Assembly: GCA_019358935.1 (NCBI GenBank)
Contig: JAHHIK010000012.1
Location: 32,001-96,000 of the forward strand
Source: Tolypothrix carrinoi HA7290-LM1
GTDB lineage: Bacteria > Cyanobacteriota > Cyanobacteriia > Cyanobacteriales > Nostocaceae
Length of the DNA stretch: 64,000 bases
Reading direction: 5' to 3'
In this document: one piece after another, positions 9,364-50,458 of the stretch
How positions within the stretch are numbered: the first letter of the stretch is position 1
How the letters are laid out: each line of letters begins with the position of its first letter
Program-made: the position numbers and the translations under genes
The notes under the pieces: generated by a model
Database searches by the model: none
What the model was told of the DNA's origin: nothing
Seen by the model: the letters and a program-made list of their open reading frames with translations, nothing else

Positions 9364-10839
9364 ATGACTTCATCTGCTCTTGTAAAAACTGAGTACGAAG
9401 CGATTATTGGTTTAGAAACCCATTGTCAGCTCAGTACTAACACCAAGATTTTCTCTAATAGTTCTACGGCTTTTGGTGCCGACCCCAATACTAACATTGA
9501 CCCGGTTTGTATGGGTCTACCTGGGGTATTACCCGTACTCAACGAAAAAGTATTAGAATACGCTGTGAAAGCGGGTTTAGCCCTAAATTGCCAAATCGCT
9601 AAATATAGCAAGTTTGACCGCAAACAGTATTTTTATCCGGATTTACCGAAAAATTACCAAATTTCTCAATACGACTTACCGATCGCTGAACATGGCTGGT
9701 TAGAAATTGAGTTAGTCGATGCTGATGGTAATCCGCTGCGGAAAAAAATCGGCATCACTCGTCTGCACATGGAAGAAGATGCGGGAAAATTAGTTCACGC
9801 GGGAAGCGATCGCCTTAGTGGTTCTACTTATTCTCTGGTAGACTACAATCGAGCAGGTGTGCCTTTGGTAGAAATTGTCTCCGAACCAGATTTGCGTTCC
9901 GGACAAGAAGCTGCTGAATATGCTCAAGAATTACGCCGCATTGTCCGCTATATCGGCGTGAGTGATGGTAACATGCAAGAAGGTTCTCTCCGCTGTGATG
10001 TCAACATCTCTGTGCGTCCGATTGGACAAAAAGAGTTTGGCACGAAGGTGGAAATTAAAAACATGAACTCTTTCAATGCGATCCAAAGAGCGATAGAATA
10101 CGAAATTGAACGCCAAATAGCCGCAGTAGAAGCTGGCGATCGCATTATCCAAGAAACTCGTCTTTGGGAAGAAACTTCTCAACGCACTATTAGTATGCGC
10201 GTTAAAGAAGGAAGCAGCGATTATCGCTATTTCCCAGAACCAGATTTAGCACCGATTGAGGTAACAAACGAACAATTAGCCAATTGGCGCAGTACACTAC
10301 CAGAATTACCAGCAGAAAAACGTCATCGTTATGAATCTGATTTGGGACTTTCACCTTACGATGCGCGGGTGTTAACTGAGGAAAGCAATGTAGCTGCGTA
10401 TTTTGAAGAAGCGATCGCACTTGGTGCAAATCCCAAACAAGCTGCTAACTGGATTATGGGCGATATCGCCGCATACCTCAACAAGCAAAAACTCAGCATC
10501 ACCGAAATTGCCCTTACTCCTACCAACTTAGCAAAAGTTATCACTCTCATTGAAAAGGGTACCATCGGCAGTAACAAAGCAAAAGAAAAATTACCAGAGT
10601 TGCTAGCTGGTAATTCTCCCGATGAAGTATTCAAAGGTGAAGAAAAAATCTCTGACGCTAGCGTACTCGAACCCATTATCGACCAAATCATCGCCGCCAA
10701 TCCCAAAGAACTAGAAAAATACAAAAGCGGTAAAACCAATCTCAAAGGCTTCTTTGTTGGACAAGTTCTCAAACAAACTGGTGGACGTGCCGATCCAAAA
10801 CTGACTAACGAATTAGTAGACCAAAAGTTGAACGCTTAG
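9364..10839 (+). CDS. gatB: Asp/Glu-tRNA amidotransferase subunit B
   Basis: IGLETHCQL, RKQYFYPDLPKNYQISQ, EGSLRCDVNIS and DYRYFPEPDL motifs. Confidence 0.98.
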   Translation: MTSSALVKTEYEAIIGLETHCQLSTNTKIFSNSSTAFGADPNTNIDPVCMGLPGVLPVLNEKVLEYAVKAGLALNCQIAKYSKFDRKQYFYPDLPKNYQISQYDLPIAEHGWLEIELVDADGNPLRKKIGITRLHMEEDAGKLVHAGSDRLSGSTYSLVDYNRAGVPLVEIVSEPDLRSGQEAAEYAQELRRIVRYIGVSDGNMQEGSLRCDVNISVRPIGQKEFGTKVEIKNMNSFNAIQRAIEYEIERQIAAVEAGDRIIQETRLWEETSQRTISMRVKEGSSDYRYFPEPDLAPIEVTNEQLANWRSTLPELPAEKRHRYESDLGLSPYDARVLTEESNVAAYFEEAIALGANPKQAANWIMGDIAAYLNKQKLSITEIALTPTNLAKVITLIEKGTIGSNKAKEKLPELLAGNSPDEVFKGEEKISDASVLEPIIDQIIAANPKELEKYKSGKTNLKGFFVGQVLKQTGGRADPKLTNELVDQKLNA

Positions 10840-10845
10840 AGAAGA

Positions 10846-11092
10846 AGACAGGGGGACAAGGAGACAGGGGGACAAGGGGGACAAGGGGGACAAGGAGGAC
10901 AAGGAGGACAAGGAGGACAAGGAGGACAAGGAGGACAAGGAGGACAAGGAGGACAAGGGGGACAAGGGGGACAGGGAGACAAGGAGGACAAGGAAGCATC
11001 TTTTCTCCCTTGTCTCCCTTGTCTCCCCCCTCCCCCCCTCTCCCTTGTCTCCCTTGTCTCCCCCCTCCCCCCCCTCTCCCCATCTCCCCCTC
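10846..11092. repeat. Purine-rich 9-mer tandem repeats (GGACAAGGA/GGACAAGGG) followed by the inverted pyrimidine-rich block
   Basis: Directly visible. The two halves are roughly reverse complements of each other. Confidence 0.9.
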
Positions 11093-11190
11093 TTGACTGT
11101 ATTTTCCCCGATACTTCTTCACAATAACTTGATAAAACATACATTAAAGATGGGTGCAACACCTCAGTCCAAAAATGCTATACTGTGATA

Positions 11191-11241
11191 ATTAGATGCA
11201 CCCTGATGATCTGGAGAGCTGCCCAAGTGGCTCTCCTTTTT
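11191..11241 (+). ncRNA. Candidate ~50-nt small RNA, copy 1
   Basis: Extended -10 TGcTATACT (11176-11184), then TAGATGCACCCTGATGATCT and terminator GGAGAGCTGC-CCAA-GTGGCTCTCC-TTTTT. Confidence 0.6.
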
Positions 11242-11339
11242 CGTTTTTAGAATTCTGGGAGAAATTGCGTCGAACTGATTTTCCGAAAAAACTTGTTAGG
11301 GGGTATTGCACCTCACCCCAGATGTGATAGTATATGTTA

Positions 11340-11390
11340 AGTAGATGCACCCTGATGATCTGGAGAGCCACCCAAGTAGCTCTCCTTTTT
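11340..11390 (+). ncRNA. Candidate ~50-nt small RNA, copy 2
   Basis: TTGCAC (11306-11311), 16 nt, TAGTAT (11328-11333, TG-extended); same core as copy 1; terminator GGAGAGCCAC-CCAA-GTAGCTCTCC-TTTTT. Confidence 0.65.
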
Positions 11391-11574
11391 CATTTTTATG
11401 GTTGCCAAAGAAATTGCTTACAGTCATATCTTGCACATACCACAGTCAACGCAGAAAATAGAAAGTGGTCTAATCGGTGTATGTGAAAACCACTGTAATC
11501 CAAAATCTCAAATCAAAAATAAAAAACTTGTTAGGGGGTATTGCACCTCACCCCAGATGTGATAGTATATGTTA

Positions 11575-11625
11575 AGTAGATGCACCCTGATGATCTGGAG
11601 AGCCACCCAAGTAGCTCTCCTTTTT
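11575..11625 (+). ncRNA. Candidate ~50-nt small RNA, copy 3
   Basis: 11521-11626 is identical to 11286-11391 (promoter, RNA and terminator). Confidence 0.65.
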
Positions 11626-11765
11626 CGTTTTTGTCCTAAATTTGCCTAGACAAGCGTTTCAAATAGGCAAGTTATTAATAACTAACAAATTATCACTCTT
11701 TGGGTAACGAAGACTTGATATAATCGCCCCTCAAGCAAAGAGTAATAGTTGAAGGGATACGAATA

Positions 11766-13079
11766 ATGAATGACTGGCAGGAAATTACTGGTGGTGTGAC
11801 AGCACCTAGAGGTTATCGGGCAGCAGGAATTACCGCAGGGTTAAAACCTTCGGGATTGCCGGATTTGGCTTTGATAGTATCAGATGTAGAGGCGATCGCA
11901 GCTGGTGTATTCACCACTTGCCAAGTAAAAGCCGCGTGTGTAGATTATTGTCGCCAACGTTTGCTCTCAAAGCATAGCGCTCGTGCTATTCTCTGCAACG
12001 CGGGACAAGCAAATGCAGCAACGGGTAACGAAGGCTGGTTAGATGCTTTAGAATGTGCGATGCTATTAGGGCAAGAGCTAAATATGCCTTCAGAATCGAT
12101 TCTGCTTGCTTCTACAGGTGTAATCGGTCAAAGAATTAAGATGGAACCTTTACGCAGTGGGATTCCCAAGCTGGTGGCAGCATTATCAGAAACAGGTTCA
12201 GATGCAGCAGCTGGGGCGATTATTACTACCGATTTAGTCACAAAATCCATTGCATTAGAAACAAGTATAGGCGATCGCCCGGTGCGAATTGGTGGCATTG
12301 CCAAAGGTTCGGGGATGATTCATCCGAATATGGCAACGATGTTAGCATTTGTTACTTGTGATGCCGCAGTTGCACCTACTCTGTGGCAACAAATGTTAAG
12401 TCGCGCAGCTGATAGAAGCTTTAATTCGATTACCGTGGATGGTGATACTAGTACCAATGATAGCTTGATAGCGCTTGCTAACGGTCAATCTCGCACCCCA
12501 GCAATTACAGAAATGGGTGCAGAAGCGGAAAAATTAGAAGCGATGTTAACAGCAGTATGCCAGCATTTAGCGAAAGCGATCGCTCGTGATGGTGAAGGTG
12601 CAACTTGTCTGATTGAAGTGCAAGTTAGTGGGGCAACCGATGAACAAGCAGCTAATCAAATCGCTAAAACCATCGCCGGCTCATCTTTAGTTAAGTCTGC
12701 CATATTTGGACGCGATCCAAACTGGGGACGCATCGCTGCTGCTGCTGGACGTGCAGGTATTCCTTTTGAGCAAGAAAACCTGCAAATTAAATTAGGGGAT
12801 TTCTTGATGATGGAGAATGGTCAACCAATACCATTTGATCGCAAAGCAGCGAGTGCTTATTTAAAACAAGCAGCAGCGAATGCTTCTAAACCACAAGATA
12901 TGATGGCTACGGATATGAGCAATGATTTGTCGGGGGATAGAAGTACAATCAAGGCTCAAAGTTTAGATAATCCGGTGATAATTGCAGTCAGCGTTGGTAA
13001 TGGACACGGTTCGGGTAAAGCTTGGGGTTGTGATTTGAGTTACGACTATGTGAAAATTAACGCCGAGTATACAACTTAA
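11766..13079 (+). CDS. argJ: Bifunctional ornithine acetyltransferase / N-acetylglutamate synthase
   Basis: AKGSGMIHPNMATML, VDGDTSTNDS, ARDGEGAT and GCDLSYDYVKINAEYTT motifs. Confidence 0.98.
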   Translation: MNDWQEITGGVTAPRGYRAAGITAGLKPSGLPDLALIVSDVEAIAAGVFTTCQVKAACVDYCRQRLLSKHSARAILCNAGQANAATGNEGWLDALECAMLLGQELNMPSESILLASTGVIGQRIKMEPLRSGIPKLVAALSETGSDAAAGAIITTDLVTKSIALETSIGDRPVRIGGIAKGSGMIHPNMATMLAFVTCDAAVAPTLWQQMLSRAADRSFNSITVDGDTSTNDSLIALANGQSRTPAITEMGAEAEKLEAMLTAVCQHLAKAIARDGEGATCLIEVQVSGATDEQAANQIAKTIAGSSLVKSAIFGRDPNWGRIAAAAGRAGIPFEQENLQIKLGDFLMMENGQPIPFDRKAASAYLKQAAANASKPQDMMATDMSNDLSGDRSTIKAQSLDNPVIIAVSVGNGHGSGKAWGCDLSYDYVKINAEYTT

Positions 13080-49180: not shown

Positions 49181-50458
49181 CTACTCCCCAGTTTCTTGCA
49201 ACACAGTCTCTATCGCCCGCTGTTTTTGCGGATCTGCTCCTTGAGCGTATTCTAAGGAGAAAGGAACGCTGATATCTGGGGTGACACCCTTACCCTCTAA
49301 CCTTTGATCGTTATTGAGAAATACATTTGTGACTGCTACATAAAGCAGGCTATTATCTTTCATTAAAAACGGACTACCAGCAACTACAGCACCGATTGTT
49401 TTGGAGCCAATTACTTGTCCGATGCGGTGTTGTTGAAAAGCAAACGCGAGAATTTCCTTACTGCTGCGGCTACCTTCATTGACCAACATCACCGCAGGCT
49501 TTTTCCATTGATAATTATAGGTATATTGTTTGCCATTGCGTCGAATATTCGTGACGCTTGGTCCTGGTTTTGCGGTAAATATGTTGAGATAATCTAAATC
49601 TCCTCCACCCCAACCGTCTCTAAGATCCAAAATTAATGCGTCTGCGCTTGACAGACGACCATAAATTAGGTCATCTTGCAACTGTTGCTGATGCGGATCG
49701 GCTGCATTTGACCAAATATGAACATAGCCAATTTTCTTGCCTTGTTGTTCAATTATTTGAGTGCTGGCTTGTTGAGCATCAAAAAAGATTTTAGTTGTAT
49801 CGAACATCTTTGGGGCGATCGCTATTTCTTGCCGACTATTTACATCCGATGTTCTCTGAATCAACAATTTAACTTGTTGACCCGCTTTACCCGCAAAAGA
49901 TTGTATTGCTTGATACGGCTTACCATCTACACTCAGTATTTCATCGCCCACCTTCAAGCCGGAAGACGCAGCCGGACTTTTATCTAGAATCGCTTTGACA
50001 AAAATCTTGCCGTTCATCTCTTTGGTAAACGCGCCAATACCACTGTATTCAATTTTGCCTTTGGGGAAAATCTTTCTTAATTCTTTCTGTAAATCTCTAC
50101 TTCTCGGATAAAAAATCCCTAAAAGCTGGTAATATTCGGGTTCATTTGCAGTGTAAAAGCGAGTGTGCGAAGTCCGCAATTGAGAAAGCATCTGATTGAT
50201 GATGACAGCAGCTTCTTCAGTTGACTTGGTTCGCGCTATTTGAGGTTTATACTGTTCTCGGATGGCTTTCCAGTCTACTCCGTTAAATTTGGGGTCAAAA
50301 AAGTTGTCGTTTACTGTTTGCCAAACTTGCTCAAAAACTTGAACCTCTGGTTTTGCCAAAGTCGGTAATAGCGGCGCCAACCACAGCAAAAGCAATACAG
50401 AGAAGCTAAAAAGGATTATTATAGCTAGACGGTTTAAGCGAGATGGAAAGTTTTTCAT
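49181..50458 (-). CDS. S41-family (tail-specific, PDZ) periplasmic peptidase
   Basis: SPAASSGLKVGDEILSVDG (PDZ), LILDLRDGWGG, SRSSKE and LEGKGVTPD motifs; hydrophobic leader. Confidence 0.9.
   Translation of the reverse strand: MKNFPSRLNRLAIIILFSFSVLLLLWLAPLLPTLAKPEVQVFEQVWQTVNDNFFDPKFNGVDWKAIREQYKPQIARTKSTEEAAVIINQMLSQLRTSHTRFYTANEPEYYQLLGIFYPRSRDLQKELRKIFPKGKIEYSGIGAFTKEMNGKIFVKAILDKSPAASSGLKVGDEILSVDGKPYQAIQSFAGKAGQQVKLLIQRTSDVNSRQEIAIAPKMFDTTKIFFDAQQASTQIIEQQGKKIGYVHIWSNAADPHQQQLQDDLIYGRLSSADALILDLRDGWGGGDLDYLNIFTAKPGPSVTNIRRNGKQYTYNYQWKKPAVMLVNEGSRSSKEILAFAFQQHRIGQVIGSKTIGAVVAGSPFLMKDNSLLYVAVTNVFLNNDQRLEGKGVTPDISVPFSLEYAQGADPQKQRAIETVLQETGE

Follow-up and report, generated by a model that had tools for sequence, protein, structure and literature searches.

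Three tandem NsiR1-like small RNA genes, predicted between gatB and argJ of a Tolypothrix, with HetR-type promoter boxes and patU as a candidate target

Why does the spacer between gatB and argJ of Tolypothrix carrinoi HA7290-LM1 carry the same short unit three times? An original prediction, made from the letters of the window (the whole 64,000-nucleotide stretch analyzed here), read the repeats as three tandem small RNA genes, each running from a TG-extended -10 box to a terminator, and likened their 5' motif to that of NsiR1. We place a probability of about two in three on the locus being a set of three HetR-controlled small RNA genes for which patU is the best candidate target. In this proposal, three independently transcribed genes would each yield an NsiR1-like small RNA of 50 nt that acts in trans. 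The housekeeping polymerase would transcribe each gene from an extended -10 promoter, and HetR would act directly, because the -35 region of that promoter is proposed to be a HetR binding site; NsiR1, by contrast, would be controlled through sigma-HetZ and DIF1. Through a single-stranded 5' seed carried on a terminator hairpin, the RNA would pair with ribosome-binding regions and so block translation. In this lineage the start of patU, on the hetZ-patU mRNA, is the best candidate target, and repression of patU would reduce the anti-sigma factor made along with sigma-HetZ.

All three 50-nt units are present on the plus strand (Table 1), their predicted +1 positions having been placed by the mapped NsiR1 start of PCC 7120 (PMC4734099). 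A repeat search recovers them as family D2, with 112-nt copies at 11137, 11286, and 11521. In every copy, TG-n-TAnnnT lies at -16 to -8 from the predicted +1, and a GGAGAG..CTCTCC hairpin is followed by five T residues (folding z of -2.2 to -2.7). Copies 2 and 3 are identical over 106 bp (11286-11391 and 11521-11626), as had been described, and no plus-strand ORF of at least 60 aa covers the units, in agreement with the claim that they contain no reading frame. The account given of copy 1 needs revision in one respect: it does keep an invariant 20-mer and differ from copy 2 at three stem positions (and also at +1), but its promoter has not drifted in the sense proposed, as the -35 box and the extended -10 box are both kept. 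Complementarity of GGGTGCA (11152-11158) to the RNA core, to which the original prediction had drawn attention, is probably a coincidence, because these letters form the left arm of the HetR-type box and the pairing is lost in the matching first copy of another locus (L055), which reads GGGTGTA.

Table 1. Features of the gatB-argJ spacer and its flanks, in positions of the window
Feature	Position	Strand	Basis
gatB, upstream flank, conserved neighbor, outside the RNA	9364..10839	+	ORF, neighborhood
HetR-type box of copy 1, GGG-N5-CAC, one mismatch to GGG-N5-CCC, centered at -35	11152..11162	+	sequence, motif
Extended -10 box of copy 1, TG-n-TATACT	11176..11184	+	sequence
Candidate small RNA, copy 1; seed +3 to +17; terminator stem 11213-11236; U-tract to 11241	11192..11241	+	71.9 bits R2; 16.8 bits NsiR1
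HetR-type box of copy 2, GGG-N5-CAC, centered at -35	11301..11311	+	sequence
Extended -10 box of copy 2, TG-n-TAGTAT	11325..11333	+	sequence
Candidate small RNA, copy 2; terminator stem 11362-11385	11341..11390	+	73.8 bits R2; 26.7 bits NsiR1
HetR-type box of copy 3, GGG-N5-CAC, centered at -35	11536..11546	+	sequence
Extended -10 box of copy 3	11560..11568	+	sequence
Candidate small RNA, copy 3, same as copy 2; terminator stem 11597-11620	11576..11625	+	73.8 bits R2; 25.3 bits NsiR1
Extended -10 box of argJ; leader of ~35 nt before the start codon	11716..11724	+	sequence; fits 36-nt argJ 5' UTR of PCC 7120 (PMC10287535)
argJ, downstream flank, conserved neighbor	11766..13079	+	ORF, neighborhood

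The spacer holds other structures as well. Directly 3' of the gatB stop (10839-11096), two opposed tracts of 9-nt repeats, one rich in G and the other in C, fold into a long imperfect hairpin that may end gatB transcription, and Rfam matches to miRNA families at 10900-11095 were dismissed as spurious products of the neighboring simple repeat. A short AATCCAAAAT-type repeat found on dozens of contigs lies between copies 2 and 3 (11497-11520). A hammerhead-like CUGAUGA core was rejected after inspection by eye, the GAAA and third stem being absent.

Copy number varies among loci and cyanobacterial spacers are rich in repeats, so a MITE or other dispersed repeat, the outcome against which the original prediction had warned, deserved scrutiny. 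The 20-mer core has three exact occurrences in the 7.96-Mb genome, all in the array, and any other place shows at least four mismatches; a genome search with the family covariance model R2 returned three full matches (72 to 74 bits), again all here, with the remainder at 27 bits or less. Elsewhere in the class the unit is mostly single copy at a fixed locus, and terminal repeats are absent. Because the core is unique to the array and full model matches number only three, the unit is not a dispersed repeat, a reading that we regard as ruled out for practical purposes.

Beyond this genome, the 20-mer (with at most one mismatch) occurs in 104 of 401 genomes of the order and in 26 of 27 of the strain's own family, against 0 for a backwards control; a minority of these matches are DIF1-type copies. 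Among the matches listed are Nostocales together with non-heterocystous genera, such as Moorena, Coleofasciculus, and Prochlorothrix, and two Anabaena records (L070 and L073) carry a copy ahead of argJ. Copies per locus range from one (99 of 147 loci) to eight. Across an alignment of 71 rows, chosen for seed and stem, the terminator covaries (91% paired, 46 double changes, 0/500 shuffles), and the seed, which is unpaired, is better conserved than the stem.

That gatB or argJ lies alongside in 85 of 113 full-flank loci would suit a cis element, such as a gatB terminator or an argJ leader or attenuator that was duplicated by chance, as would a metatranscriptome contig from a relative that begins at 11336, matches to 11390, and continues for 1035 nt. 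Each copy has its own promoter, however, and arrays reach eight copies; neither gatB nor argJ is found at 14 full-flank sibling loci; argJ has a separate promoter, and in PCC 7120 its own start site with a 36-nt 5' UTR (PMC10287535); and the seed, better conserved than the stem although unpaired, is shared with a trans-acting RNA. We consider a cis element highly improbable and continue with small RNA genes. On sequence grounds, the three units are very probably transcribed. The contig just described gives only a weak hint of this, and a second contig covers the promoter; such RNA contigs, assembled from unrelated samples (4 of 12 runs were covered), are thin in coverage, include promoter DNA, and cannot show transcript ends. 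In PCC 7120, which may or may not carry a copy, a transcript map lists no unit in the interval from the thrC start site to that of argJ (PMC10287535), and a table of 327 small RNAs contains the seed only in canonical NsiR1 (PMC4734099).

How these RNAs relate to NsiR1 can be stated more firmly. In their 5' seed, 16 nt (copies 2 and 3) or 15 nt (copy 1) are identical to those of PCC 7120 NsiR1, which bears out the resemblance first suggested. A full-length Rfam match had been named as a check on novelty, and none of the copies reaches the cut-off for RF02399 (16.8 to 26.7 versus 39 bits). Elsewhere in the genome, 10 genuine NsiR1 copies score above the cut-off, eight of them adjoining hetF on contig C171 behind DIF1 promoters. 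Because the window copies score below the cut-off and true NsiR1 copies are found elsewhere, we treat them as paralogues rather than as the NsiR1 array. The best DIF1 (TCCGGA) match in each of the three window copies still has 3 mismatches; exact DIF1 precedes 7 of the 8 NsiR1 copies on C171 versus 0 of 265 sibling-type copies. These results support the suggestion of a separately regulated sibling, away from hetF and without DIF1: the copies belong to a real branch, sister to NsiR1 and conserved, whose regulatory input is predicted to differ. The sibling would act in the manner of NsiR1 yet falls outside that family by Rfam score, by DIF1, and by the hetF locus.

Other variants of this family were encountered along the way. 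Two canonical NsiR1 copies that pass the Rfam cut-off stand alone, off the hetF array (G000:C84:29696-29746 and C122:19742-19799), one of them behind an exact DIF1. A third type (L013, L017, and L171-L173), located off gatB/argJ, combines the same seed with a HetR-type box nearer the -10 and another terminator stem. In family f33 (L032 and L236-L245), which has no hetR match and one HetZ-related gene, tandem NsiR1-family copies follow a TCC(C/T)GA variant of DIF1.

The sister branch is apparently undescribed so far. Neither it nor a link between NsiR1 and patU was found in the literature searched, which included passages of PMC6596454, PMC11797042, PMC12288457, PMC11298460, PMC8400943, and bioRxiv 2020.04.15.042648; Ionescu 2010, Brenes-Alvarez 2020, and Mitschke 2011 may mention such copies or patU. 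A published survey reported NsiR1 BLAST homologues in 38 of 89 genomes (Table S3, PMC4734099), a count that may silently include sibling copies.

Presence of the RNA follows hetR closely. In a class-wide sample of 151 genomes, a strong RNA match was found in 80 and hetR in 82; 78 genomes had both, 67 neither, 2 the RNA only, and 4 hetR only, counts in which related genomes are not independent. One of the four hetR-only genomes has a boxed copy just below threshold. All 76 hetR-positive genomes without the 20-mer match model R2 at E ≤0.001, some with canonical-type copies only, compared with 31 of 71 genomes without a hetR match.

The promoters of the sister branch offer a more specific connection. 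HetR is the master developmental regulator, and a palindrome of its type precedes nearly every sibling copy; neither this box nor the class-wide range had been part of the original prediction. When copies were classed by their transcribed part alone, GGG-N5-CCC with at most one mismatch was present in 255 of 257 (173 perfect and 82 with one mismatch), the 257 being loci in genomes with hetR or with hetR status unchecked. Its center falls at -35 in 187 copies, compared to a background of 333 in 20,000 random positions. The box also accompanies the best match in 30 of 30 further hetR-positive genomes, and in other orders it is present at all 14 loci of 14. Structure and electrophoretic mobility shift assay define GGG-N5-CCC as the core that HetR recognizes (PMC4649674), and the flanks of the box agree with the published hetP-derived consensus (PMC4192349). 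In two families, f17 and f8, hetR was found in 0 of 27 genomes each and hetZ in none of the 7 tested; their copies have the box in 0 of 19 cases and the extended -10 in 19 of 19. Three exceptions were left out of that 0/19: G038 and G009, with perfect boxes and hetZ and without a hetR match, which possibly reflects assembly gaps, and G010, which lacks hetR and hetZ and has a box with one mismatch.

From these patterns, HetR probably binds the box. Binding may be weaker in Tolypothrix, because all three window boxes read GGG-N5-CAC, each with one mismatch; paired triplet changes abolish HetR binding in vitro (PMC4649674). The chief alternative is that the palindrome is recognized by a different regulator, one that accompanies hetR in filamentous cyanobacteria. 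Since hetR, hetZ, and patU are inherited together, the correlation between RNA and hetR is not specific to HetR; the preferred spacer (TGACA type) is unlike that of the hetP site, the box is kept in the three hetR-negative genomes just named, and no HetR chromatin immunoprecipitation peak near argJ is among the 26 regions listed for PCC 7120, a strain that may or may not carry a copy (PMC4192349). Nevertheless, the core and flanks of the box fit the HetR consensus, and this genome has the same kind of site at its hetP promoter and at its hetZ promoter, the latter of the -45 type described for activated hetZ (PMC3610870). HetZ itself is a sigma factor for TCCGGA promoters, a different motif (PMC13342950). 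We regard a regulator other than HetR as improbable. As a separate observation, a perfect GGG-TGACA-CCC at 49279-49289, in the 3' end of a 437-aa ORF and upstream of a large minus-strand hybrid kinase gene, may be due to chance.

If HetR does bind, the direction of its effect is harder to predict. A dimer at -35 would cover the sigma-4 position and the promoter is retained where hetR has been lost, so we lean toward repression, which we rate as an even bet. Some activators, those of the PhoB type, substitute for the -35 contact, which keeps us from settling on repression, and activation of the small RNA genes by HetR is a possibility of somewhat lower standing.

What such an RNA might control was addressed by ranking candidate starts genome-wide for pairing with the seed, with no prior and with our own ORF calls. 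An initial ranking over -40 to +30 was discarded, as it was dominated by spurious ORFs and long-loop duplexes. In the seed ranking, the start of a 326-aa gene came second of 15,446 candidate starts, below a doubtful start. Its position 3' of hetZ and an Atlas match of 0.98 identify this gene as PatU, although Pfam and NCBIfam returned no family for the 326-aa protein. The patU gene acts as a brake on cell differentiation. At the predicted site (G000:C15:27154-27168), which spans 17 to 3 nt before the patU ATG, RNA nt 1-11 pair perfectly and nt 13-16 pair after one bulge, all within the part common to NsiR1 and its sibling. In PCC 7120, hetZ-patU5-patU3 is one transcript (PMC10287535).

Because the patU site overlaps a Shine-Dalgarno (SD) sequence, hetZ codons, and the spacer of a sigma-HetZ promoter, a HetR-controlled small RNA could be real while patU is not its target, the junction match arising from these overlapping constraints and the seed being held by other mRNAs (hetF leaders or hetP-like genes, for example) or by a protein. 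Within the order, the signal withstands such constraints. An anchor that ignores the spacer, namely the DIF1 promoter, could be placed in 49 of 52 hetZ-patU loci and is consistent with the published sigma-HetZ promoter of patU5-patU3 (PMC13342950). With the strain's own family excluded, pairing at 42 loci from 17 families averaged -14.0 kcal/mol versus -7.5 kcal/mol for shuffled seeds (0/1000); with the anti-SD part fixed, the same loci gave 1/1000, and the 17 loci in which the site follows the hetZ stop gave 0/1000. The patU spacer is also the best of 194 DIF1-like promoters in the genome, the remaining 193 spacers having no match to the seed.

Outside the order, the patU match fades and the seed does not. 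At the 25 loci of 30 that could be anchored, pairing averaged -10.7 versus -7.9 (26/1000, or 0/1000 with the anti-SD part fixed), the core GCATC was present in 2 of 25, and a noncoding subset of 6 loci was not significant. The site is also weak in families f11, f21, f30, and part of f38, which keep the seed, and the RNA persists in hetR-less families that lack hetZ. Given the weak match in other orders and the families that keep the seed without the site, patU cannot be the sole reason for the seed. We hold only tentatively that patU is a real target in this lineage, and a small RNA that acts elsewhere is a serious competing possibility.

The same junction (G000:C15:27149-27177) contains a DIF1-type promoter (TCCGGA, 16 nt, ATGAATA) that overlaps the hetZ stop and the patU start. 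It is kept in 49 of 52 loci of the order (L253-L305) and in 25 of 30 from other orders (L442-L470), including those whose hetZ stop is 100 nt upstream; at some f38 and f9 loci, patU now starts downstream of this promoter. If transcription began ~15 nt into the reading frame, as NsiR1 spacing would predict, the transcript from this promoter would lack the site.

Other mRNAs are predicted to pair with the RNA as well, as expected if the seed is held by something other than patU. The seed reaches -25.7 kcal/mol with the hetF leader, through an antisense NsiR1 copy. By eye, the SD region of PCC 7120 alr3234 is perfectly complementary to RNA nt 10-19, and a homologue gives -22.6 with the sibling versus -17.2 with canonical NsiR1; NsiR1.4 has been reported to pair just after the alr3234 start codon (PMC9045159). 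HetP-family starts are not enriched as a common target (30/500 shuffles, with 30 of 31 loci scored and one lacking an ATG), no site was found at this genome's single hetP, and five hetR-less genomes revealed no shared target among the 60 of 91 pattern matches examined. Two further observations concern these genes: near 5205-5220 of C171, the hetF leader has a second short stretch complementary to seed nt 2-9 (by eye), and f17 and f8 genomes without hetR and hetZ (L315, L316, L319, and L331) contain HetP-family genes and keep the sibling RNA.

The role of HetR in filamentous cyanobacteria without heterocysts has been stated to be open (PMC4192349), and a small RNA gene that 78 of 82 hetR-positive genomes retain, with a near-perfect HetR site, offers a direct and testable candidate target. 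Studies of NsiR1 may have overlooked a copy that carries its seed, and probes or antisense constructs directed at the NsiR1 5' end could cross-react with the sibling. What is new here is the complementarity of the seed to the hetZ-patU junction. If the patU site is real, the family would act on the sigma-HetZ/PatU pair, which makes up half of a minimal patterning circuit in a 2026 study whose main text mentions neither NsiR1 nor small RNA (PMC13342950). On a broader and rather unlikely reading, the sibling would be the ancestral, class-wide form of NsiR1 and among the most conserved direct HetR targets, silencing patU together with NsiR1, freeing sigma-HetZ, and forming an RNA layer in the HetR and sigma-HetZ-PatU circuit, also in filaments without heterocysts. 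Such a history, if true, would add an unrecognized RNA layer to the minimal patterning circuit.

Among known systems, NsiR1 is the closest, sharing the 5' segment GTAGATGCACCCTGAT, a length of 50 to 60 nt, the layout of seed plus terminator, tandem copies with individual promoters, and a link to the HetR circuit. NsiR1 has a DIF1 promoter and sits at hetF, whereas the sibling has an extended -10 with a HetR-type box and sits at gatB/argJ, differs at nt 17-21 and in the terminator (its score falling under the Rfam cut-off), and, unlike NsiR1, is present as one such copy in most hetR-positive genomes class-wide. Direct HetR targets (hetP, hetZ, patA, and alr3234) resemble it in their GGG-N5-CCC site and matching flanks, but the sibling box would control a noncoding RNA and, at -35 rather than the -45 of activated hetZ, lies one helical turn closer, over the -35 position. 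If the patU site is real, a parallel would also exist with Spot 42 acting on galK, an operon-uncoupling small RNA that pairs where a downstream cistron begins within a polycistronic mRNA. The two RNAs are unrelated in sequence, and in the cyanobacterial case it would be a sigma factor that is separated from its own anti-sigma factor.
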